Source of the DNA: Candidatus Gastranaerophilales bacterium
Lineage (GTDB): Bacteria; Cyanobacteriota; Vampirovibrionia; Gastranaerophilales; Gastranaerophilaceae
Direction of reading: 5' to 3'
NCBI GenBank assembly: GCA_944326655.1
Contig: CALVEX010000159.1
Location: 1 to 23,413 of the forward strand
DNA length: 23,413 nucleotides
The notes under the pieces are model-generated. The model did not search any database. It saw nothing but the letters and a program-made list of their open reading frames with translations, and was not told where the DNA came from. The position numbers and the translations under genes are program-made. Shown in pieces: positions 113 to 23,330 of this stretch; the stretch's first letter is position 1, and each line of letters opens with the position of its first letter.

Positions 113-3100
113 TTATTTTAACTGATATAAAGTACATGTCTTTGTAAATTTATCTTTATTTGTCCAGCCGCCGTACAGATCCATATAAATTTCATCACAA
201 TCTATATCGCCGAGAAAAGAAACTTGTCTTATTTCTTGTTGTAAATCAGAAATTGGAACATCATTATAAGACCCGCTCATATAAACCGGAGTATTTTCAA
301 CACCGGTAATTTCTTGAGAAACTTTTGCCGCATAATCAGCCATCGCAGATCTAACCTGTACTCCTGTCGCATTTGAAGGTTTATATTTGTTATTAATTTC
401 TATATTATCAATTATAAAAGCAGGTTTTCCATTGTCATCTTTGATAAAATAACACAGAGCATTTCCTATAGTTTTGCCGGAAGTATTATCAACAAGCTCT
501 ATCATATTATAGGCAGTATCCATCACAAAGTGAGGCATTGCAGATCCATTTCCGCCTCCCATACCTATACAACAGGTCGAGTAATTTCCCTGGAAAATAT
601 CTTTTTGCGGATTTCTGTCCCACATTTTTATTGTCAAATCAAGTTTTCTTTCGGATTTTCCTTCTTGTACTGACGAAATATCATCTAATCTTTGATTAAG
701 ATGCTCTAAAATAGTAAGTGTATTTCGAGGTGTCTGGGCTCTTTTAGGATCGGGATTTGCGGCATTTCCCTGTGCGCGTTTCCATACCTGAGCAAGCTGT
801 CCCTGTTCAGAAGTATCTGATAACATTTCAATAAGTTCTTTTAATTTATTTTTATTAGATAAATATTCTTTAGGTATAATAAACTCATCTCCTTTAATGA
901 ATTTAGGAAATTGTTTTTTCAAAAATCCTTTAACAGGAGTTTGCATTAACATATTTATATCTTCCGATACCTGAGCTGCTATTTGTTCTATATGTTCCGC
1001 ATTTTTATCTTTTGATACAAAATGAATTTCATGTTCTTTTGAGGGGTGTAACCATTTTTCATAATTTAAACCTGATGTCTCAAACATATTACGTGTGTTT
1101 TCATTTGCTATGCCATATATATTAGATGTATTGTGGATAAATTGATTAAAATCAGGTTCTAAAGAACCGGCTTTCATGATATCATTGAAAGATAAATCAT
1201 TGCCTGAATTTATTTCTTTTGAAAGCAAATGAATATAATTCATATCCCAAGACAATAATTTATCTTTGGGAATAGATGCGATTTGAGTATCAGTCAAACC
1301 TGAATTTTTCATTATTTGTTGGCATAAATCTGCATTCAACTGCCCTACATCAACTTTTCCCTGATCTATCATAGATTGTATGCCATCAAATGACATATTG
1401 TTTGCTTTATATGCAGTGATTAAATCTATAAATTCAATTTTTTGTGTAGGCATAAACGGTTTGTTGTCTGTATTGCAGGATTCCGACAGATTTTTTAACA
1501 AAGACATTTCATCCGGGGAAAAATCGCGTAAAATATCTATATACTCATCTGCATCATCAAATCTCATTCTCAATAAATGATTTACTGCTTCTTTGTCAAA
1601 AATTTCAGAAGCTGCCATTAAACAGCAATAATTACTATCAACAAATTCTTCTACTTCATCTCTTGCAAGTTCCGGGGTTTCAAATTCGCCATTGACATAC
1701 CATTCAGGATTTTTTAGCATTTTTTGTTTTAGAGCCTTTACCTTTGAATCCAGTTCTACTAAATCCTTATTTTTTAGCATTTTTAAAACATTATCATTAC
1801 GCGTCCAACAAATATCATCAATAAGAGGTTGAATACGCTCATTCGGGAAATCTGGATTGCGGCATAATTCTCTTACAATGTCTATAATATCCTTGCCTTT
1901 ATTTATGTGGCGCAATATACCTTCTATGTGTTCTTTCGGGAAATCTGGATTGTTGCACAATTCTCTTGCTAACTCTATATTGTCTTTATTTGTGCAACCC
2001 AATAATATACCTTCTATGTGTTCATTCGGGAAATCTGGATTGTTGCATAATTCTCTTGCAAGATTTATATTGTCTTTATTTGTGTAAGCCAATATACCTC
2101 TTATTTGCTTTTTCGGGAAATCTGGATTGTTGCACAATTCTCTTGCAAGGTCAATAATATCCTTGTCTTCATATATGTCGAACATTATACCTTTTATGTC
2201 CTCTTTCGGGAAGTCAGGATTGTTACACATTTTTCTTGCAATGTCTATATTATCTTTATCTGTGAATAACAATATACCACGTATGCGCTCTTTCGAGAAA
2301 TCGCCATTGTACATATCTTTTACAAGATCACGACGCTGATATGCATAATCCATATTATTTTTATCTGAGTAGAATAATATATCGCGCATGTATTCATTTG
2401 GAAAATCCGGATCATTGTATAATTCTCTTGCAAACTCTATGTTATCTTTATTTATGCAACCCAATATATCTTTTATTTGCTTTTTCGGAAAATCCGGATT
2501 GTTACACATTTTTCTTGCAATGTCTATAACATCCTTATCTCTACCTGCTAATAACAATATATCTTTTATTTGCTTTTTCGGGAAATCTGGATTGTTACAC
2601 ATTTCTCTTGCAAACTCTATATTATCCTTATGTGTGTAACCCAATATACCTTTTATGTGTTCATTCGGGAAATCTGGATTGTTACAAATTTCTCTTGCAA
2701 ACTCTATGTTATCCTTATGTGTGCAACCCAATATACCTTTTATGTGTTCTTTCGGGAAATCTGGATTGTTGCACAATTCTCTTGCAAGATCTATATTACC
2801 CTTATTTGTGAAGTCCAAAATATTATTAGCATACTCTCCGCCAATTCCTCTAGCCTTAAGTGTTTCAGCAAGCTCATCTTTCATCTTTGCAAATGTTTCA
2901 TCGTCTATCTCGATTTTTGCTGTTTCCGGTGCAGAAAGCTGTGCATGCTCGGGCACGTCTAATTCTTTGCCCTGCCGCGTAATAGGTGTCCCTTCATTCA
3001 TATCCGTTTTTATTTGTTCTCGTATAACTTCCTGTGTTTCCTGAGTTCTTCCCTGTGAAGCACCTGAAGATGTTTCCAATGATTGTTGCACTCTATGATT

Positions 3101-4978
3101 TTCTTCCGATTGTTTAGCAAAGATATTTGCCTGCGCTTGCTGAGGCGTTTCAGGATGGAAGGTCAGAGCTTCGGGAGCTCCTTCCACTTTGTAGCCCTTT
3201 GTTCCAAGTAACAATACGCTCAGTGCAAGTTCATTATCATTCTTTGCTGTTACTATTACTTCTCCGTTTCTAGTTAAGGTATAGGTCCCGTTTTCTTGTT
3301 TTTCTACATTTACGTTATTTAGTTTTGCACCCTTATGTATTGCAGAACCTGCAAACATCATTCCGTAGTTCATAAGTCCGTTTTGTGACAGGGATTCTTG
3401 TATTGTCATATCGCTTGTTAATCTGTCGAATATAACATCTGCTGTTGTTTCTGTCCCTGTTCCGATGATTTTGGGGATTATACTTTTAAATATTTGAGGA
3501 TTTTTTGACAGGATTTTTGCTACGCTGTCTCCTACAGGGCCTGAGACATATGCACCGAAGGCTCCGTACATCATGCCGTTTTTCAATTCTTCCCAGGCTT
3601 CTTGACCGGTTTGTTCTGTTATTCCTTTTTTGCTTGTTGCATCGCTTACTATTGTCACTGCAGGGTTAAATGCTGCAGTTGCTGTAGTTGCTATGCCTTT
3701 TACAGCGGCATTACTTACCATGGCACCTGCCTTTGTACCGAATTTTGCACTTGCTAGCTGCATTGCTTTGGAACCCAAGTTTTGCATGGCTGTTGAGCCC
3801 ATGGCAAAGTATGATGCTGCTATTGTTGTACCAATTTCGATTACGGCAGCCTGCGTCTTCATGTTAGAAATATATTCATTAATTATTTCTTCCGAGTTAT
3901 AATTTCCCATTGCCTGCTTGTATGCAGACTTGTATTCTTGCTCCAGTGTATTTTTGTCTAAAGAATGTATCTGAGAGTCATATTCATTTTTAGCATCTGT
4001 GAGGAAGCTTTTTAGTTCCTGAACGAATTTCTTATCATCATTTTGAGCAATACTATTTAATTGGGATACGTATTGTTGAGCAAGCTCTCTGTTGTTTCCG
4101 ACATGGGGTAAGATGTGGAGCATTGCTGCTTTTCTGACATTAACGGGGGCTGCATTATCTATGTTCGATAGAGTATTTGAAATATTATCTGATAGGTTTT
4201 GATATGCGTTTAGAGTTTGGAGGTTTGTATCTGCTTTCTGAAGATTTTGAAATGCCTGTTCATTATAATCTATACCATAGAGTTCTTTGAAATTTTTATT
4301 AAATTCTTCTGGATTGTTTGTCGTATTCTTAAGTCTGATAATCCCGCCTATTTCATTGCTGATTGCCTCTCCATTTTCCCAGACTGTAACAAAGTCGTTA
4401 CGGCCTGTTATTTTATCCCAGGTATAGTTGCCTATTGATTGAAGCCCCTGTTGAACGGCATCAAATGAAACTTTACCTATGCCGTTGTAGTAGTTTGTAA
4501 GGTTATCTCCGGCATTCCCTGCTTGTTGGAATAATTTATCAGCAGCGAAAGCTCTTGTTTGTTGGGATTGTTGTTCTAATAATTGTTCCTGGGAGAGATT
4601 TTGTTTTTGTTCAGTTTTTGAAGCGGAAATGGGAGATGGCTGTTGTTGAGTTTGATGATTATTTTGTTCTAGTGTGAGAGTAATATCATCCAGATATGTG
4701 CCGTTGTCATAAGTATCATATTTCCCAAAACTGAATCCATTGCCAAAGATAGAAGTAGAATTGAATCTGGAGTTGTATGAGTCCTGCCCTTCTTTTGTGC
4801 CAAAAGCCCATTCTTCGAATTCATCGCGGGACAGAATTCCGTTTGCAAGCATTTGTGCGGCAACATCATATTTTGACATATCTTTTTTTGATATATATTC
4901 ATTGCTTCTGAGTTGATCCAGGTGTGCCATAGCATAATCATCAATTTTTTTAGATATTGAATCGTTTGTTCCTGACAT
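113..4978 (-). CDS. Giant (1621 aa) multi-domain protein. The N-terminal region is Q/N-rich and polar. A Gly/Ala-rich hydrophobic segment follows (aa ~380-520). The central part has about 11-12 tandem 30-aa repeats (NIEFARELCNNPDFPKEHIKGILGCTHKD). The C-terminal ~250 aa domain is Cys-containing (QGNYSTCCIGMGGGNGSAMPHF...). No signal peptide. Candidate secreted effector, toxin or adhesin-like protein.
   Basis: Single uninterrupted 4866-nt ORF on the minus strand. ATG at 4978 is preceded by GAAGGAAG, with in-frame stops upstream. Plus-strand ORFs inside it are short, repeat-derived artefacts. Repeat periodicity is visible at both protein and nucleotide level. Confidence 0.8.
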   Translation of the reverse strand: MSGTNDSISKKIDDYAMAHLDQLRSNEYISKKDMSKYDVAAQMLANGILSRDEFEEWAFGTKEGQDSYNSRFNSTSIFGNGFSFGKYDTYDNGTYLDDITLTLEQNNHQTQQQPSPISASKTEQKQNLSQEQLLEQQSQQTRAFAADKLFQQAGNAGDNLTNYYNGIGKVSFDAVQQGLQSIGNYTWDKITGRNDFVTVWENGEAISNEIGGIIRLKNTTNNPEEFNKNFKELYGIDYNEQAFQNLQKADTNLQTLNAYQNLSDNISNTLSNIDNAAPVNVRKAAMLHILPHVGNNRELAQQYVSQLNSIAQNDDKKFVQELKSFLTDAKNEYDSQIHSLDKNTLEQEYKSAYKQAMGNYNSEEIINEYISNMKTQAAVIEIGTTIAASYFAMGSTAMQNLGSKAMQLASAKFGTKAGAMVSNAAVKGIATTATAAFNPAVTIVSDATSKKGITEQTGQEAWEELKNGMMYGAFGAYVSGPVGDSVAKILSKNPQIFKSIIPKIIGTGTETTADVIFDRLTSDMTIQESLSQNGLMNYGMMFAGSAIHKGAKLNNVNVEKQENGTYTLTRNGEVIVTAKNDNELALSVLLLGTKGYKVEGAPEALTFHPETPQQAQANIFAKQSEENHRVQQSLETSSGASQGRTQETQEVIREQIKTDMNEGTPITRQGKELDVPEHAQLSAPETAKIEIDDETFAKMKDELAETLKARGIGGEYANNILDFTNKGNIDLARELCNNPDFPKEHIKGILGCTHKDNIEFAREICNNPDFPNEHIKGILGYTHKDNIEFAREMCNNPDFPKKQIKDILLLAGRDKDVIDIARKMCNNPDFPKKQIKDILGCINKDNIEFARELYNDPDFPNEYMRDILFYSDKNNMDYAYQRRDLVKDMYNGDFSKERIRGILLFTDKDNIDIARKMCNNPDFPKEDIKGIMFDIYEDKDIIDLARELCNNPDFPKKQIRGILAYTNKDNINLARELCNNPDFPNEHIEGILLGCTNKDNIELARELCNNPDFPKEHIEGILRHINKGKDIIDIVRELCRNPDFPNERIQPLIDDICWTRNDNVLKMLKNKDLVELDSKVKALKQKMLKNPEWYVNGEFETPELARDEVEEFVDSNYCCLMAASEIFDKEAVNHLLRMRFDDADEYIDILRDFSPDEMSLLKNLSESCNTDNKPFMPTQKIEFIDLITAYKANNMSFDGIQSMIDQGKVDVGQLNADLCQQIMKNSGLTDTQIASIPKDKLLSWDMNYIHLLSKEINSGNDLSFNDIMKAGSLEPDFNQFIHNTSNIYGIANENTRNMFETSGLNYEKWLHPSKEHEIHFVSKDKNAEHIEQIAAQVSEDINMLMQTPVKGFLKKQFPKFIKGDEFIIPKEYLSNKNKLKELIEMLSDTSEQGQLAQVWKRAQGNAANPDPKRAQTPRNTLTILEHLNQRLDDISSVQEGKSERKLDLTIKMWDRNPQKDIFQGNYSTCCIGMGGGNGSAMPHFVMDTAYNMIELVDNTSGKTIGNALCYFIKDDNGKPAFIIDNIEINNKYKPSNATGVQVRSAMADYAAKVSQEITGVENTPVYMSGSYNDVPISDLQQEIRQVSFLGDIDCDEIYMDLYGGWTNKDKFTKTCTLYQLK
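1840..2840 (-). repeat. Tandem ~90-bp (30-codon) repeat array inside the giant CDS, about 11-12 units with high unit-to-unit nucleotide identity.
   Basis: The string ttcgggaaatctggattgtt[g/a]cacaattctcttgcaa recurs at ~1843, 1936, 2026, 2113, 2206, 2293, 2400, 2485, 2576, 2666 and 2753 (period 87-93 bp). The translated unit is ...ARELCNNPDFPKEHIKGILGCTHKDNIEF... Confidence 0.85.
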
Positions 4979-5222: not shown

Positions 5223-5233
5223 GGGGGGGGGGG
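5223..5233. repeat. Homopolymeric G11 tract (C11 on the sense strand of the giant gene), ~245 nt upstream of its ATG. Candidate slipped-strand phase-variation tract.
   Basis: Printed sequence ttgag + 11 g + atttc. The sense-strand context AAGAGGA..TTTTGTT..ATGG..(23 nt)..C11 resembles the uORF/poly-C module of the pilin cassettes (AAGAGGAG TTTTGTT ATGG ..28 nt.. C10). Confidence 0.6.
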
Positions 5234-9941: not shown

Positions 9942-11177
9942 TTAAAAAGGGTAATCATCTTTTATCTGCCATCCGTCACGCATAATTTTTGCAGCGCATG
10001 TGTATCCGCCGGATACTGCTTTAGCGTTGCAAGCCCAGGATGCTGTACTATTAATAGTGTTATCAGGCCAATCGTATCCGTAAGGTTTTAACATTTTGTC
10101 AGCCAGAATAAAGAAAAACAAATCCTTTCCTGCAACATTTGGTCCTTTATCAGAACCATTTATATCAATAAAAAATGCTGCATTATTTATTGATGTTGAA
10201 TAGAGTCCAATACAGACACCGTCTACGGTTTTAAAAGATGCAGTCCCCGGATTTATGGGGGAGGAGAGCCAGACTCCTGTCAACCATTCATACTGTGTAT
10301 TTTCATAAAACATTTTCCCGTTATAACACATATTTTCTGCATAGTCTCCGGGCGGATATGTTTTATCAATTTTAAATTCCGGTGCCAAATAATTATTAAC
10401 TATTTTTTCGGGGGAATTCCAATCCTGCCAGTTTTCCATTTCTCCATGTTTAATTTCTGCCATTATAATGGCCTGATTTGTCAGTGTGTAAGCTCGTTTT
10501 AATTTTGTAACAGTTTCATCCTTTTGATGTTTTGTAATTAATGTTGGTAAAGTCATCGCCGCAACCACGCCGATTATGCCGAGGGTGATTAGGACTTCTG
10601 CGAGTGTAAATGCGGCTCGACGTTGACCGTTCAGCAGGACTACGCGCGTAGCGCCATCTGCGATGGTAAAGGTAGCAAGTTTTTTCTTAAGTGAAGAAGT
10701 TAATAAGTCAATAGGTGAATAAGTTCGTTTCAGGGAATTGATATAGTCCCCTCTCCCCGGCGAATTGACCTTCGCGCGGGAGAGTACTCTTATACTCTTC
10801 CCTCTCCCCCTGCGGGAGAGGGTTAGGGTGAGGGGTGTTTGTTTGAAACCCATCCTAACCTTCCCTAATAAGGGAAGGAATTCTATGTCCCCTCCCTTGA
10901 GGGGAGGGGAATACAAGGGGAGGGTGATGCTCTTAAGTGAATAAGTTAATAGGTCAATAAGTGAATAAGTTCTTATCGGCAGCGTACCGCTGCAAAAGAT
11001 TACCGAGGAAATTTCACTATTATGCGATTGCGACGGTCGTTTCACACGCTGGCAATGACACGTATCTTGTGAGCTTTGCTCACAGATACCGGCATACCTT
11101 ATTACCCTCCTATCTTCCGATCTTCCATTAATGGCCTGCCCTCCTGCCTTCTTGAACTCTTGCCTTCTGTTTGTCAC
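9942..11177 (-). CDS. Prepilin-type (type IV pilin-like / pseudopilin-like) protein, paralog 1. The class-III signal motif AAFTLAEVLITLGIIGVVAAMTLP lies at codon ~189 of an open frame that starts at GTG 11177. The C-terminal ~220 aa globular part has the DINGSDKGPNVAGKDLFFF motif. The true 5' end is unresolved (see findings).
   Basis: Canonical FTLxE + hydrophobic helix. There is no in-frame ATG/GTG/TTG within 60 codons upstream of the motif. The frame stays open for ~188 codons back to a GTG whose UG overlaps the UGA stop of an RBS-equipped upstream ORF. Paralogous to 14013..15209. Confidence 0.6.
   Translation of the reverse strand: MTNRRQEFKKAGGQAINGRSEDRRVIRYAGICEQSSQDTCHCQRVKRPSQSHNSEISSVIFCSGTLPIRTYSLIDLLTYSLKSITLPLYSPPLKGGDIEFLPLLGKVRMGFKQTPLTLTLSRRGRGKSIRVLSRAKVNSPGRGDYINSLKRTYSPIDLLTSSLKKKLATFTIADGATRVVLLNGQRRAAFTLAEVLITLGIIGVVAAMTLPTLITKHQKDETVTKLKRAYTLTNQAIIMAEIKHGEMENWQDWNSPEKIVNNYLAPEFKIDKTYPPGDYAENMCYNGKMFYENTQYEWLTGVWLSSPINPGTASFKTVDGVCIGLYSTSINNAAFFIDINGSDKGPNVAGKDLFFFILADKMLKPYGYDWPDNTINSTASWACNAKAVSGGYTCAAKIMRDGWQIKDDYPF
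10688..11170 (-). repeat. Conserved hairpin-rich upstream cassette of pilin paralog 1 (shared with paralog 2 and partly with 23001..23330). It contains four polypyrimidine-loop-polypurine hairpins (10749-10785, 10800-10822, 10859-10878, 10889-10908) bracketed by a ~45-bp direct repeat (10690-10735 and 10925-10972, cttaagtgaataagttaataggtcaataagtgaataagttc). It also contains the palindrome TGTGAGCTTTGCTCACA (11068-11084).
   Basis: Direct sequence comparison with 14750-15205 (modules are nearly identical, with mosaic indels). Confidence 0.75.
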
Positions 11178-11221
11178 GCTTTCGGGGGGGGGGCGATTCT
11201 CAGCTTCTTATCTTTAACCAT
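11174..11221 (-). CDS. Upstream ORF of pilin paralog 1 encoding MVKDKKLRIAPPPKA (15 codons). It contains the C10 tract (encoding APPP). Its UGA stop overlaps the GUG start of the long pilin frame (gcGUGAca).
   Basis: AAGAGGAG-N7-ATG on the minus strand. The 10-G tract is confirmed independently by the plus-strand track ORF 11076..11297 (..CHAFGGGAILSF..). One extra C fuses this ATG in frame with the 9942..11177 frame. Confidence 0.5.
   Translation of the reverse strand: MVKDKKLRIAPPPKA
11184..11193. repeat. Homopolymeric G10 (C10 on the sense strand) inside the upstream ORF of pilin paralog 1. Candidate phase-variation tract.
   Basis: ttc + 10 g + cgatt, read directly from the sequence. Confidence 0.8.
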
Positions 11222-11255
11222 AACAAAACTCCTCTTAATTTCCAATAACATTTTT

Positions 11256-11284
11256 ATTATTTATGATTTTTCAGGTTTTGTCAA
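11256..11284 (-). promoter_or_regulatory. Sigma70-like promoter for pilin paralog 1 (TTGACA-N17-AATAAT), ~55 nt upstream of the upstream-ORF ATG.
   Basis: Minus strand reads tatTGACAaaacctgaaaaatcataAATAATaaaaatg. A perfect -35 hexamer. Confidence 0.45.
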
Positions 11285-11375
11285 TACGAATAATTAATTA
11301 AAAATTAATTTCAATGACTTTTGAAAAAATAACGTTAAAATGAAAATATAAGTTATTTGAAATGGAGTTTTAATT

Positions 11376-14012
11376 ATGCCTAATTTTGAAAAGTTTACTA
11401 ATTATTCTCAGGAACTTTTGAATTCTGCAGGTGCAATTATGCAAGAACACAGAAATTCCGAGATGCAGCCCGAGCATATAATGCTTGCTATGATTAAGGA
11501 CAGCGGTGCGATAAAAGATTATTTGACCGAGTTAAAACTTTTAAATCAAGGTTTTATAGATAAAATTGTTTCCGTTGTTAATTCTTTCCCGACAATATCC
11601 GGGCCGCCTTCCGGGCAGGTATTTTTGTCTACCCAGACTTACAGACTGTTAGATTTGGCAGGTCAGCAGGCAGAAGAATTTAAGGATGAATTTATAAGCG
11701 CTGAATCAATCCTGCTTGCTATGACACGATTAGATAACAGCCCTATACAACTATTGTTGAAAAATTACAATGTTGATTCAAATAAAGTTTTAAATGTAAT
11801 GAAAAAAATAAGAGGTAATAAGAAAGTGGATAATAAAAATGCTGAAGAAAATATGAAAGCACTTGAAAAATATTCAACTGATTTAACAGCTCTTGCAAGA
11901 AAGGGAAAATTAGACCCTGTAATAGGCAGAGATGAAGAAGTCAGAAGAATTATTCAGGTATTAAACAGAAGAACAAAAAACAATCCTGTTTTGATAGGTG
12001 AGCCGGGAGTCGGTAAAACTGCAATAGTTGAAGGACTTGCCCAGCGTATTGTGCGCGGTGATGTTCCTGAAAGTTTAAAAGATGTTAAACTTGTTTCTCT
12101 TGATATGGGAGCACTTGTTGCAGGGGCTAAGTTCAGAGGCGAGTTTGAAGAACGTTTAAAAGCAGTATTGAAAGAGGTTGAAGATTCAAACGGCGAAATT
12201 GTAATGTTTATTGATGAGTTGCATACAGTTGTTGGTGCAGGTGCAACAGAAGGTTCAATGGATGCAGGAAACCTCTTGAAACCAATGCTTGCCCGTGGTG
12301 TTTTGAGAACAATCGGTGCTACAACAATTAATGAATATCGTAAATATATAGAAAAAGACCCTGCTTTGGAAAGACGTTTCCAGCCTGTTATGGTTGGTGA
12401 GCCCTCTGTGGAGGATACAATTTCTATCCTCAGAGGTTTAAAAGAAAAATATGAAGTTCACCATGGTATAAGAATTTTAGACAGTGCATTAATTGCTGCT
12501 GCAAAATTGTCTGACAGATATATAACTGACAGATTTCTCCCAGATAAAGCAATTGATTTGATTGATGAGGCCGCATCATCTTTGCGTATCGAAATAGATT
12601 CTATGCCCGAAGAAATTGATAAAATGATGCGTCAGAAAATCCAGCTTGAAATTGAAAGAGAAGCCCTTAAAAAAGAGGTTGACCCCTCCCCGAAATCTGA
12701 GATTTCGACCCTCCCTCAAGGGGAGGGTACTACAGAAACCAAAATTGCAGACCTTACTAAACATATAACAGATTTAGAGGGCAAAATTTCAAAATTAAAA
12801 GCTCAATGGGAACAAGAAAAGGCTTCAATTACAGGTGAAGCAGGTATTAAAGAAGAAATCGAAAAAGTTAAAAATAAAATTGAAGAGGCAGAACGGAATA
12901 CCGATTTGCAGACAGCTGCTGAACTTAAATATGGCAGACTGCTTGAGCTTGAAAAGCAATTAAAGGCTGTGCAGAATAAAGAAAAAACAGATAATAAATT
13001 GCTTAAAGAAGAAATAGACGATGAAGACATTGCAAATGTTGTAAGTAAATGGACGGGAATTCCGGTTAATAAACTCGTAGAAAGTGAAAAGCAAAAACTT
13101 CTTAATATGGAAGAAATATTGCATAAGCGTCTTGTCGGTCAGGAAGAAGCTGTTGATACGGTTGCAGATGCTATCCGTCGTGCGCGTTCAGGCCTAAAAG
13201 ACCCGAAACGCCCGATAGGTACCTTCTTATTCTTAGGGCCTACAGGGGTTGGAAAAACAGAGCTTGCAAAATCTCTTGCGGAATTTATGTTTAACGATGA
13301 AGATGCGCTTATACGTATTGATATGTCCGAGTATATGGAAAAACATAACGTTTCTAGATTAGTCGGTGCTCCTCCGGGATATGTCGGCTATGATGAAGGC
13401 GGTCAGTTGACTGAGGCTGTCAGACGTAAACCTTATTCGGTTGTTCTTTTTGATGAAATTGAAAAGGCTCATCCGGATGTATTCAATATTATGCTTCAAA
13501 TCTTTGATGATGGGCGATTAACTGATTCAAAGGGAAGAACTGTTGATTTTAAAAATACATTAATCATTATGACATCAAACATCGGAAGCGACATAATCCT
13601 TGAAAATACTTTAAATTCTCTGGGTTCAAAGCAGAATTTTGAGGATACTAAAGAAAAAGTTCTTGAAGTTTTGAGAAGCAGGTTTAAACCCGAATTTTTA
13701 AACAGAATAGATGAAACGATATTCTTTAGAGCCTTGAATATGCAGGATTTAACAAAAATTGTCGATATTCAAATGGAGTATTTAAGAAAATTGTTAAAAG
13801 ATCAGGAAATCGACTTTGAAATAACTGATGATGCCAAAGAATTTCTTGCAACCCGCGGCTTTAACCCTGTTTACGGTGCAAGACCATTAAAACGTGTCAT
13901 AAGACAGTTAATTGAAAACCCGTTATCAAAACAAATTTTGGCCCAGAAATTCCTGCGCGGCGACAAGGTTATCATTGATGTTGATAACGATGAAATTGTT
14001 TTCAAAAAATAA
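11376..14012 (+). CDS. clpB: Chaperone ClpB (Hsp100/AAA+ disaggregase), 878 aa, carrying an in-frame ~16-aa insertion in the M-domain.
   Basis: Both AAA+ modules ([37 protein letters not shown]), the M-domain coiled coil and the C-terminal [10 protein letters not shown] motif. Collinear with E. coli ClpB except for the extra [17 protein letters not shown] segment. Confidence 0.95.
12681..12729 (+). repeat. In-frame palindromic hairpin element inside clpB. It combines cgaaatc-tga-gatttcg with accctccc-tcaag-gggagggt, and belongs to the same CCCTCCC-loop-GGGGAGGG family found in the pilin cassettes.
   Basis: Sequence gacccctccccgaaatctgagatttcgaccctccctcaaggggagggtac. Its reverse complement (gtaccctcccc TTGA gggagggtc) is near-identical to the cassette hairpin gtcccctccc TTGA ggggagggg at 10889-10908 and 14766-14785. 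Confidence 0.7.
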
Positions 14013-15209
14013 TTACGGATTAATACATTGCCAGTAAGTTTTTGATGTATCTGTTTCACATGTGTTTAAAATTGCCCATTTTGCACATGTGAAACCCTGG
14101 TAATGTTCTTTCTCAGATGTAAAACAGCCCCCAAAGCGTGTATATGGTACTACGTTGTTATTTTTGTCTATGTTGAATGAAAATAAATCGTGTCCCAGAC
14201 GGTTAGGTCCTTTGGCCGGGCCGTTGATATCAATGTGATACCCTCTCGCTCCCCAAGGACTCATAAATATAAGAATACCACTATTAGTTAAAATAGATTT
14301 TTGAGTAAGTGAGTCCGCGTCTATATGTGCATATGTCCCTTTAACAAAAGAGTCATAACTTTTTTCCCTGCGCCCTGTGCAGTCTAAGTAATATTTTGTG
14401 CACAGTTGAGCATTTGGTATATACTTTATAAGTTTGTCTAAATGATTTGAATATGCTGTTCTCATATCAGATTCAGAATTTAAATCTTCATACAGCATCG
14501 GATAATCATTCTGCATAAGCAGATGAGCATTTTGAATTAATGAATAAGCTTTTTTGAACTGTGTTTCCAAAACATGCCGTTTGTAATTTGTAATAACCAC
14601 AGGTAAAGTCATCGCCGCAACCACTCCGATAATTCCGAGGGTGATGAGGACCTCTGCCAATGTAAACGCGGCCTGACGTTGACCATTCGGCATGGCTACG
14701 CGCGTAGCGCACTCAGCCAAAGTGAATGCAGGTATCAACTGAACGCGTTCCATGTCCCCTCCCTTGAGGGGAGGGGAATTCAAGGGGAGGGTGATGCTCT
14801 TAAGTGAATAAGTTAATAAGTCAATAGGTGAATAAGTTCGTTTCGAGAAGGTGTTCTGCCTCTCTTTGGAAAACTCTTGTTCAAATATTTTAAAGTTTAA
14901 TAAATATTGTGGCAGAGGGCGAAAAAGAGGGTTGGGGTGAGGTTCTATTATGTTCTGCGATTGCGACGGTCGTTCCACTCCCTCGCAATGACATGTATTT
15001 TGTGAGCTTTGCTCACCGATTTCAGCATACCCTCCTACCTTCCTATCTTCCAATCTTCCTGAATCAGCCCTCTCTCTAACTATCTCCCGAGGAGAGAAAA
15101 CGCGTTTCAACTTCCTTATACAGGAAAGGAAGTTATTTTTACGCGGGCTCTGCCCGCCGATAATAGCCTGACCTCCTGCCTTCTTGCCCTCCTGACTTCT
15201 TTTTGTCAC
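14013..15209 (-). CDS. Prepilin-type (type IV pilin-like) protein, paralog 2. MPNGQRQAAFTLAEVLITLGIIGVVAAMTLP lies at codon 173, with an in-frame ATG at 14693 just before the motif. The C-terminal part has the DINGPAKGPNRLGHDLFSF motif. The frame is open back to a GTG near 15209 that is coupled to an upstream ORF, as in paralog 1.
   Basis: Same architecture as 9942..11177. The stop codon abuts the clpB stop (convergent, zero spacer). A partial duplicate FTLAE motif (IPAFTLAECATRVAMPNGQRQAAFTLAEV) is present. Confidence 0.65.
   Translation of the reverse strand: MTKRSQEGKKAGGQAIIGGQSPRKNNFLSCIRKLKRVFSPREIVRERADSGRLEDRKVGGYAEIGEQSSQNTCHCEGVERPSQSQNIIEPHPNPLFRPLPQYLLNFKIFEQEFSKERQNTFSKRTYSPIDLLTYSLKSITLPLNSPPLKGGDMERVQLIPAFTLAECATRVAMPNGQRQAAFTLAEVLITLGIIGVVAAMTLPVVITNYKRHVLETQFKKAYSLIQNAHLLMQNDYPMLYEDLNSESDMRTAYSNHLDKLIKYIPNAQLCTKYYLDCTGRREKSYDSFVKGTYAHIDADSLTQKSILTNSGILIFMSPWGARGYHIDINGPAKGPNRLGHDLFSFNIDKNNNVVPYTRFGGCFTSEKEHYQGFTCAKWAILNTCETDTSKTYWQCINP
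14750..15205 (-). repeat. Conserved hairpin-rich upstream cassette of pilin paralog 2. It contains hairpin 14766-14785 (cccctccc-ttga-ggggaggg), hairpins 15083-15095 and 15111-15132, the gaataagt module 14797-14850 and the palindrome TGTGAGCTTTGCTCAC (15001-15016).
   Basis: Module-by-module similarity to 10688-11170. An additional ~140-nt segment is absent from paralog 1. Confidence 0.75.
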
Positions 15210-15253
15210 GCTTTCGGGGGGGGGGCGATTCTCAGCTTCTTATCTTTTTTCAT
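15206..15253 (-). CDS. Upstream ORF of pilin paralog 2 (MKKDKKLRIAPPPKA if the tract is C10). It has the same RBS, poly-C tract and UGA/GUG overlap as paralog 1.
   Basis: AAAAGGAG-N7-ATG on the minus strand. The 3' coordinate depends on the tract length (9 as I read the printed line; 10 implied by the frame of the supplied ORF 14013..15209). Confidence 0.4.
   Translation of the reverse strand: MKKDKKLRIAPPPKA
15217..15225. repeat. Homopolymeric G tract (9-10 nt) inside the upstream ORF of pilin paralog 2.
   Basis: I read gctttc + 9 g + cgatt. The adjacent block reads cctgcccttcttg. The ORF-track translation MTKRSQEGKKAGG requires cctgccttcttg instead, so the G run is most probably 10 and one of my two run counts is off by one. 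Confidence 0.6.
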
Positions 15254-15287
15254 AACAAAACTCCTTTTAATTTCCAATAACATATTT

Positions 15288-15317
15288 ATTATGAGCCAAT
15301 TTAATAGTATTTGTCAA
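15288..15317 (-). promoter_or_regulatory. Sigma70-like promoter for pilin paralog 2 (TTGACA-N18-CATAAT), positionally equivalent to the promoter of paralog 1.
   Basis: Minus strand reads ggaTTGACAaatactattaaattggctCATAATaaatatg. Confidence 0.45.
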
Positions 15318-19158: not shown

Positions 19159-19231
19159 GCCGATGTAGCTCAGTTGGTAGAGCAACTCATTCGTAATGAG
19201 TAGGTCAAGGGTTCGAGTCCCTTTATCGGCT
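19159..19231 (+). tRNA. tRNA-Thr (anticodon CGT), 73 nt, CCA not encoded.
   Basis: Manual cloverleaf. Acceptor gccgatg/tatcggc (one G-U pair). D arm tagctcagttggtagagc. Anticodon stem actca/tgagt with loop ttCGTaa. T arm aaggg-ttcgagt-ccctt. Discriminator t. Confidence 0.85.
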
Positions 19232-23000: not shown

Positions 23001-23330
23001 ATGTGTAATACAGTCATTCTGTACCTCGGATTGTGCTTTGTGTTTCAGAAGTTAGTTGCAAGAAGTTCGGAAGGCAGGAAGGCAAGAGGTCAAGCCGTTA
23101 TCGGCGGGCAAGGCCCTCGTAATGACAATTACAAGTTTAACTTTTGCAGCGGTACGCTGCCTATACGAACTTCTCGTCCTAACGTCTTTACGTCTTATCG
23201 TCTGAAACAATACGAACCTCACCCCAGCCTCTCCTTGTAAAGGAGAGGGGACGATATCAGCTCGCCGAAACGAACTTATTCACCTAAACTCGTTTCACTC
23301 TTCACTCATCACAGTTCACTTAATATTATT
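23001..23330 (+). repeat. Third, degraded copy of the pilin upstream cassette (plus-strand orientation). It lacks the promoter, upstream ORF and poly-C module, has a frame-breaking stop, and retains one hairpin (cctctcctt-gtaa-aaggagagg, 23228-23249) and a diverged gaataagt module. A new gene starts at ~23405 (AGAGGG..ATGAAAA).
   Basis: Same-frame peptide similarity (VARSSEGRKARGQAVIGGQ...FCSGTLPIRT against paralogs 1 and 2). Nucleotide similarity to 11120-11170 and 15120-15200, including synonymous third-position differences. Confidence 0.6.

Follow-up and report, generated by a model that had tools for sequence, protein, structure and literature searches.

A candidate phase-variation switch in the leader-coding region of type IV pilin-like genes of Candidatus Gastranaerophilales

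We have analyzed a stretch of 23,413 nucleotides (hereafter the window) from a Candidatus Gastranaerophilales bacterium (contig CALVEX010000159.1 of assembly GCA_944326655.1), in which two genes coding for type IV pilin-like proteins, called here paralog 1 and paralog 2, are each preceded by a run of ten C located shortly after an ATG that is out of frame with the pilin. An earlier note, made from the sequence of this DNA alone, had proposed a translational phase-variation switch ahead of paralog 1. The comparison with relatives leads us to a similar view: the module is on balance probably a homopolymeric-tract contingency switch, working by slipped-strand phase variation in the part of a type IV pilin-like (DUF6613) gene that encodes the leader. 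The features of a contingency locus found here are an enrichment of tracts of a hypermutable length (at least about 8 nt), a location between the start and the body of the open reading frame (ORF) where the tract sets the frame, and differences in tract length between samples. Gastranaerophilales are widespread uncultured gut relatives of the cyanobacteria, and to our knowledge almost nothing has been established about their surface biology.

The module ahead of paralog 1 and its relatives

The elements of the paralog 1 module are the following.

11279..11284, minus strand: -35 box TTGACA, with a 17-nt spacer to AATAAT; the same TTGACA stands ahead of paralog 2 and in L001, L003 and L090
11256..11261, minus strand: -10 box AATAAT, inside TAAATAAT, from a consensus scan
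11229..11236, minus strand: Shine-Dalgarno sequence (SD) AAGAGGAG, 7 nt ahead of the ATG
11219..11221, minus strand: ATG, true start of the pilin precursor at the on tract length; the equivalent ATG opens P0002, P0040 and P0125
11174..11221, minus strand: 15-codon off-frame ORF, MVKDKKLRIAPPPKA and a stop, the truncated product at C10
11184..11193, minus strand (G10 on the plus strand): C10 homopolymer, encoding A-PPP; one C more or two C fewer join the ATG to the pilin frame
11175..11177, minus strand: GTG overlapping the TGA (11176-11174), first codon of the 411-codon frame 9942-11177

Read on the minus strand, the promoter, ribosome-binding site, ATG, 15-codon ORF, C10 run, UGA/GUG overlap and 411-codon frame were all present as the earlier note had described them. 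The promoter-like sequence TTGACA-N17-AATAAT has 11 of 12 consensus matches and was the top site of this kind found by the scan between 9800 and 11450; besides, a box similar to TAAATAAT recurs 20–35 nt 5' of the ATG in C-type loci from other species. The tract is preceded by the ATG and nine codons, and with C10 the distance from the ATG to the F codon of the pilin motif leaves a remainder of 2 when divided by three. With C11 or C8 the ATG is joined in frame to the long ORF, and with C9 a 30-codon ORF in the third frame results, so that the consequences predicted earlier for these lengths are correct. The pilin motif AAFTLAEVLITLG (signature AAFTLAEVLITLGIIGVVAA) starts 189 codons into the long frame, with its F codon at 10610-10608. 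The closest in-frame ATG, GTG or TTG is located 81 codons upstream of the motif.

There are three G/C runs of at least 6 nt in the window (36.6% GC), and two of them sit in near-identical copies of the module. The second copy and its gene are located as follows.

15206..15317, minus strand: second module copy, ahead of paralog 2, with TTGACA at 15317-15312, ATG at 15253-15251, C10 at 15225-15216 and the TGA/GTG overlap at 15209-15206
14013..15209, minus strand: long frame of paralog 2, a 181-codon mosaic leader plus the pilin-like domain

Over 132 nt the paralog 2 module is 91% identical to that of paralog 1, with an SD, an upstream ORF (MKKDKKLRIAPPPKA and a stop) and again the overlap gcGTGAca. 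In the GTDB representative genomes a 25-mer from the SD/ATG region had 0 exact matches, and a tract-spanning pattern searched in the JGI metagenomes gave two chance matches, in unrelated contigs of 55% GC.

The family belongs to Candidatus Gastranaerophilales (Melainabacteria) metagenome-assembled genomes from the gut, and several of its members are fused from the ATG onwards. Proteins P0002 (MFKDKKLRIIPPPERV...) and P0040 (MVKDKKPNPLPKT...) open at the equivalent ATG and continue into the pilin. In L001, the DNA that encodes P0040, the promoter, the SD and the ATG are unchanged but the tract is degenerate, CCCCCTCCCC; no source DNA could be traced for P0002 and P0099. A third example, P0125 (MKKDKKLRIAPPPESVTN...), is a 413-aa ortholog of paralog 2 found in two independent ENA assemblies (L003 and L004), the first with the gene order of the window and the second a shorter contig on which the P0125 gene adjoins clpB. 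Its tract is G-C-T-C9-G, 11 nt, which puts the ATG and the pilin in frame, reading MKKDKKLRIAPPPESVT..., and the protein goes on as ...PPPESVTN..., the GTG being there an internal Val codon. Since these homologues are fused from the equivalent ATG, it is at this ATG that the long frame really starts, and P0125, P0002 and P0040 bear out the proposal that the poly-C acts as a frame switch between promoter, ribosome-binding site and ATG on one side and the pilin frame on the other. Interrupted tracts are frequent among the in-frame alleles (C-T-C9 in P0125, C10 plus T in L028, the degenerate run of L001), as would be expected if the switch had been locked in the on position. Paralog 1 of the L003 strain has C10 as in the window, and a third paralog of the same strain (L005/L006) has C10 together with the GTGA overlap.

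Tracts across the family and between samples

We scanned by script 80 Gastranaerophilales loci taken from GTDB representative genomes (418,593 nt, 35% GC). G/C runs of at least 8 nt numbered 50, against 0.6 expected by composition, a very large excess over chance, and 44 of them were located in open leader regions of pilins, i.e., in front of 44 of the 92 pilin motifs; the remaining six were mostly part of modules of the same type. Among the 44 there were 30 G runs and 14 C runs, and the length was 10 in 36 cases, 11 in three, 9 in two, 12 in two and 8 in one. Tracts of G, encoding Gly-Gly-Gly, thus outnumber those of C at the same position, and the role that had been suggested for poly-Pro and EF-P does not hold as a general one.

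The frame was scored in 48 loci, window included, and a start could be assigned in 46 of them, mostly as an SD plus ATG located 7–12 codons upstream of the tract (range 4–36). The ATG was out of frame with the pilin in 42 of the 48, and 33 had a tract of length 10 needing one additional base, although these loci share ancestry and are not independent. Four more had length 10 and needed one base fewer, and four were in frame (two with G11 and one with C10 plus an extra T among them); the remaining loci showed other combinations. At the off loci the stop of the ATG frame was found at a median of ~8 nt past the tract. In 16 of the 42 out-of-frame loci there was no ATG, GTG or TTG in the pilin frame from the tract to FTLAE, so that a change of frame at the tract is the sole route to expression there, which supports the earlier claim that expression of the pilin depends on the module. 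The same design can be seen in a member with a short leader (L020), in which one additional C would produce a prepilin of the ordinary kind, MNYNKALRVPPPPQNVGGSKG|FTLAEV; to this design the genes of the window thus add ~180 inserted codons.

The tract has consequences also for annotation. Owing to the tract, a single gene appears in the records with products of 195, 206, 230 and 238 aa, and the short upstream ORF is called as a separate 77-aa protein in 33 contigs. Gene callers mis-start or truncate the genes of this family, and its N-terminal annotation is systematically unreliable.

A comparison of tract length among relatives had been asked for by the earlier note, and it showed that the same gene differs between samples. 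Gene A, which adjoins recN as paralog 1 does, had C10 in ten contigs from ten samples (L097-L106), C9 in L089 and C11 in L107, where the C11 encodes a fused protein, P0144 (MNNKASKVAPPPEKLAPGEWFSAFTLAEV). Gene B, located between metK and glmS, had G13 in five places (L108-L112, with a listed coverage of 22–39x) and G10 in L113 (10x), and the N-termini of its protein variants imply G14 and a fused G15, in this case from the proteins alone. For paralog 2 the difference is that between C10 in the window and C-T-C9 in L003/L004. Judged by these assemblies, tract length is variable in nature and alleles of the on type occur, yet the assembled consensus is usually the off one.

The pilin-like protein and its leader

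The long frame of paralog 1 is made up of two parts.

9942..10610, minus strand: mature type IV pilin-like protein (FTLAEVLITLG N-terminal helix plus DUF6613), stop codon included, from Pfam matches
10611..11177, minus strand: 189-codon leader, a hairpin-rich repeat mosaic open in the pilin frame, from frame stops, GC, indels and folding

The N_methyl domain (PF07963) was found with 22.9 bits in paralog 1 and 23.8 bits in paralog 2 (cut-off 21.2). The DUF6613 domain (PF20318) was found in paralog 1 with 25.4 bits (cut-off 24.3) and stayed under the reporting threshold in paralog 2; most homologues carry it, and the pilin family comprises more than 6,700 homologous clusters. Across the family alignment F-T-L-A-E-VLITLGIIGVVAA is invariant, i.e., the N-terminal methylation motif with its hydrophobic helix and Glu5. 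Leaders of the MKKGFTLAEV type are present in many family members. A short basic leader (about 5–30 aa) with Gly at -1 was not found in paralog 1; counted from the ATG the leader would have ~204 aa, with Ala at -1. By its sequence the protein appears as a type IV pilin in the remaining characters and departs from one in the length of the leader.

The leaders of the two paralogs (567 nt in paralog 1 and 543 nt in paralog 2) consist of shared blocks and hairpin-rich insertions, and their GC content is 47–48%, vs. 37% in the window. Stops per frame, with the pilin frame first, are 0/15/11 in paralog 1 and 0/12/12 in paralog 2. Two clearly delimited indels distinguish the paralogs, of 99 and 189 nt, each divisible by 3, and in homologues from other assemblies the same leader modules occur in other combinations, always in frame. 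RNA folding of the paralog 1 leader gave z = -4.65 against shuffles. The open pilin frame (0 vs. 11–15 stops) points to translation of the leader rather than its removal, and insertions probably persist there only if they preserve the frame. They would be tolerable if the prepilin peptidase cuts the leader off. A search with the leader-only protein gave 8 matches and missed known relatives. We considered whether the ~570 nt separating ATG and FTLAE hold an intron, a riboswitch or some other known RNA, and ruled this out, the sole Rfam match in the window being a tRNA at 19159-19231.

Sequences of the leader type are found also at other points. Inside clpB (11376-14012), at 12690-12745 on the plus strand, there is an in-frame segment encoded by two small hairpins, and one of them, CCCTCCC-TCAA-GGGGAGGG, belongs to the type of the SPPLKGGD module seen in the pilin leaders; here a repeat element seems to have been inserted in frame into a housekeeping gene. 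The leader modules exist in a third copy, decayed and devoid of promoter, tract and pilin, at 23050-23300 (plus strand) in the intergenic space before a gene starting at ~23409; the usual frame of this copy is open save for one stop within a hairpin loop. At 10596-10676 and 14650-14740, both on the minus strand, the segment coding for AFTLAE is duplicated around a 42-nt insert with the palindrome GCTACGCGCGTAGC, giving the product ATFTIADGATRVVLLNGQRRA-AFTLAEV. Many homologues (P0007, P0091, P0096, P0097) contain the arrangement FTLAEGATHV...RRAAFTLAEV in one to three copies, a pattern that suggests a small element inserting into the N-terminal coding sequence of the pilin with target duplication. 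Outside the window, protein P0133, predicted from an ENA contig, combines in one frame modules of the leader type, a pilin-like helix and the C-terminal half of PdxJ (PF03740), and is either a gene-caller artefact or a rearrangement.

The third long homopolymer of the window is a C11 on the minus strand at 5223-5233, intergenic and located ~245 nt before the ATG (4978) of a repeat-rich ORF of 1621 aa. By eye it falls in a possible promoter spacer, TTGTAG-N17-AATAAA, that was unlisted by the consensus scan, and if located in such a spacer it could be a phase-variable tract of the promoter type. The ORF itself (113-4978) gave no confident Pfam domain and contains, at 1837-2820 (minus strand), about nine tandem repeats of 87–93 nt encoding a unit of the type CNNPDFPKEHIKGIL.

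Possible mechanisms and known systems

The mechanism that we propose is as follows. Translation would start at the ATG, served by a sigma-70-type promoter and a strong SD, and the C10 run would be met nine codons on. A run of 11 (or 8) bases would let the ATG frame read on through the cleavable leader of 189 codons as far as the pilin. At 10 bases translation would stop after 15 codons and give no pilin, or a trace of it by slippage or reinitiation. Slipped-strand mispairing during replication would shift the run by one base and individual paralogs would flip on and off, both copies in the window being at the off length. Such length changes would be frequent and reversible within a clone, C10 would be phenotypically off, and the long leader would presumably be removed by the prepilin peptidase. 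The narrow peak at length 10 can be explained, in principle, by a mutation bias that depends on length. In Campylobacter jejuni tracts of G8-9 mostly gain a base and those of G10-11 mostly lose one, resulting in a modal length of 9 (PMC3401435). If the equilibrium here were 10 and the on length 11, each paralog would be mostly off and on rarely and briefly.

Several observations weigh against this proposal. Every tract length reported here is an assembly consensus, and heterogeneity within a population was not seen directly. The near-uniform off configuration of the scored loci (42 out of frame, 33 of length 10 needing one more base) is unexpected from random switching alone. Of the two deviating alleles of gene A, the C9 of L089 has ~4x coverage and the C11 of L107 is on a 1.5-kb contig with coverage unlisted, so homopolymer miscalls are possible. 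Paralog 1 has C10 in both assemblies available, and the proteins predicted with C11 for paralog 1, for the L005 paralog and for the P0053 gene were absent from a collection of 15 billion proteins in an exact look-up. The same look-up retrieved neither the C11 form of paralog 2 of the window nor the off form of the ENA paralog 2.

The uniformity of the off state is also in line with another reading, programmed recoding, which we consider a credible though clearly less probable explanation. The 10-nt run would be fixed, and slippage of the RNA polymerase (adding one C or G) or -1 slippage of the ribosome would set a low level of pilin, so that the gene would never be truly off and the variants in the DNA would be incidental. 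A length of 10 that is nearly invariant across species and in the G and C versions (36/44), with 33/48 needing exactly one base more, would be in line with this, and so would the tightly conserved spacing from ATG to tract, mostly 7–12 codons, with a stop of the ATG frame soon after. The downstream ORFs, including leaders of 100–280 codons, are intact, which implies regular expression, and in-frame majority alleles are rare, with none for paralog 1. In addition, the RNA-DNA hybrid of bacteria spans 9–10 bp, and slippage is efficient on runs of 9 A or T (PMC5009743). On the other side, the sites of efficient slippage known from bacteria consist of A or T, and we retrieved no example on G or C. 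The 89 nt directly 3' of the tract do not form a structured element either (z = -0.11 vs. shuffles), four loci of length 10 would have to lose a base, not gain one, and the lengths do vary among samples (C9/10/11 and G10/13), fused alleles included. In its strongest form, with the out-of-frame 10-mer a selected recoding site in most paralogs and G/C-run slippage yielding a small fixed fraction of precursor whose giant leaders (up to ~280 aa, with in-frame mobile hairpin elements) are discarded by the prepilin peptidase, we think it rather unlikely. If true, it would be the first family-wide case of bacterial slippage on G/C runs and would provide by far the longest class III signal peptides. 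A sequence of the CCTCCGCCAC type would be the non-slippery counterpart of the run at the same length. Phase variation and programmed slippage are not mutually exclusive.

The earlier note had also suggested that at C10 termination at the UGA is followed by reinitiation at the overlapping GUG, in which case C10 would be the on state and only C9 would uncouple the pilin. The GUGA overlap is indeed found in both copies of the window and in L005, and L033 has an overlap with AUG (AUGA), a start codon being kept. Against it, a start codon overlapping the stop of the upstream ORF appears in just 5 of the 42 out-of-frame loci, all of the closely related C-type subfamily of the window, and 16 loci have no start in the pilin frame at all. 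The GTG is an ordinary Val codon in the fused alleles, has no SD ahead of it, and at C10 might possibly serve as a weak reinitiation codon. As a designed feature the coupling was thus not borne out; we regard it as very unlikely, and C10 seems better read as off (or leaky) than as a coupled on state. Less probable still, to the point that we give it hardly any credit, is that a true C11 has been under-called or that these are pseudogenes with a chance frameshift. Homopolymers of at least ten bases are error-prone and many of the contigs have low coverage, but the same sample series (ONAT22-1_*, BRZ_*) give 9, 10, 11 and 13 for different samples, and G13 was found on contigs of high coverage (22–39x). 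Decay is also at odds with a design repeated in more than 40 loci of many species, with downstream frames of at least 400 codons open (0 vs. 11–15 stops).

Should the tracts be contingency switches as we propose, about half of the pilin-like genes of Gastranaerophilales would have one in the leader, and the composition of the pilus or pseudopilus would be combinatorial and stochastic. Variation of the pilus would be a likely route to evade phages or host immunity, or to vary adhesion. The more than 40 natural tracts offer material to study why length 10 dominates, and the cleaved leader peptide would represent a dumping ground for in-frame repeat elements.

In the pilC gene of Neisseria a poly-G is located in the region coding for the signal peptide and changes of one base switch the gene on and off. 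The likeness lies in a G/C homopolymer a few codons past the start, in the cleaved N-terminal peptide of a pilus protein. The differences are that here the pilin-like subunits themselves (with class III signals) would be switched, in dozens of paralogs per genome, and that this would happen in an uncultured sister lineage of the cyanobacteria with a length almost uniformly of 10 and a consensus mostly off. The palindromic elements of Rickettsia, inserted in frame in protein genes, resemble the hairpin repeats found here in that both are short and tolerated in ORFs by keeping the frame, as in the 189-codon leader and the clpB insert. Unlike them, the repeats of the window are unrelated in sequence and pile up in a presumably cleaved leader peptide.

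The polyG/polyC contingency genes of C. jejuni (PMC3401435) are similar in having many loci, intragenic G/C runs of 8–11 with a peaked length and on/off switching by frameshift; their modal length is 9 and they code mostly for enzymes that modify surface glycans, whereas the tracts described here lie in pilin-like genes and are known from assembly consensus. With the cases of programmed transcriptional slippage, such as dnaX of Thermus thermophilus and spa13 of Shigella (PMC5009743), they share a run of about the length of the RNA-DNA hybrid, a mostly out-of-frame layout and nearby stops in the non-productive frame, and differ from them in that the runs are of G or C instead of A or T and in having length variants in the DNA, fused alleles included. 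We found nothing describing such tracts in the literature on Gastranaerophilales or Melainabacteria with homopolymers, phase variation or pili. The mechanism itself is already known from Neisseria pilC and C. jejuni, and what is unusual is the combination of a near-uniform off 10-mer with very long mosaic leaders.

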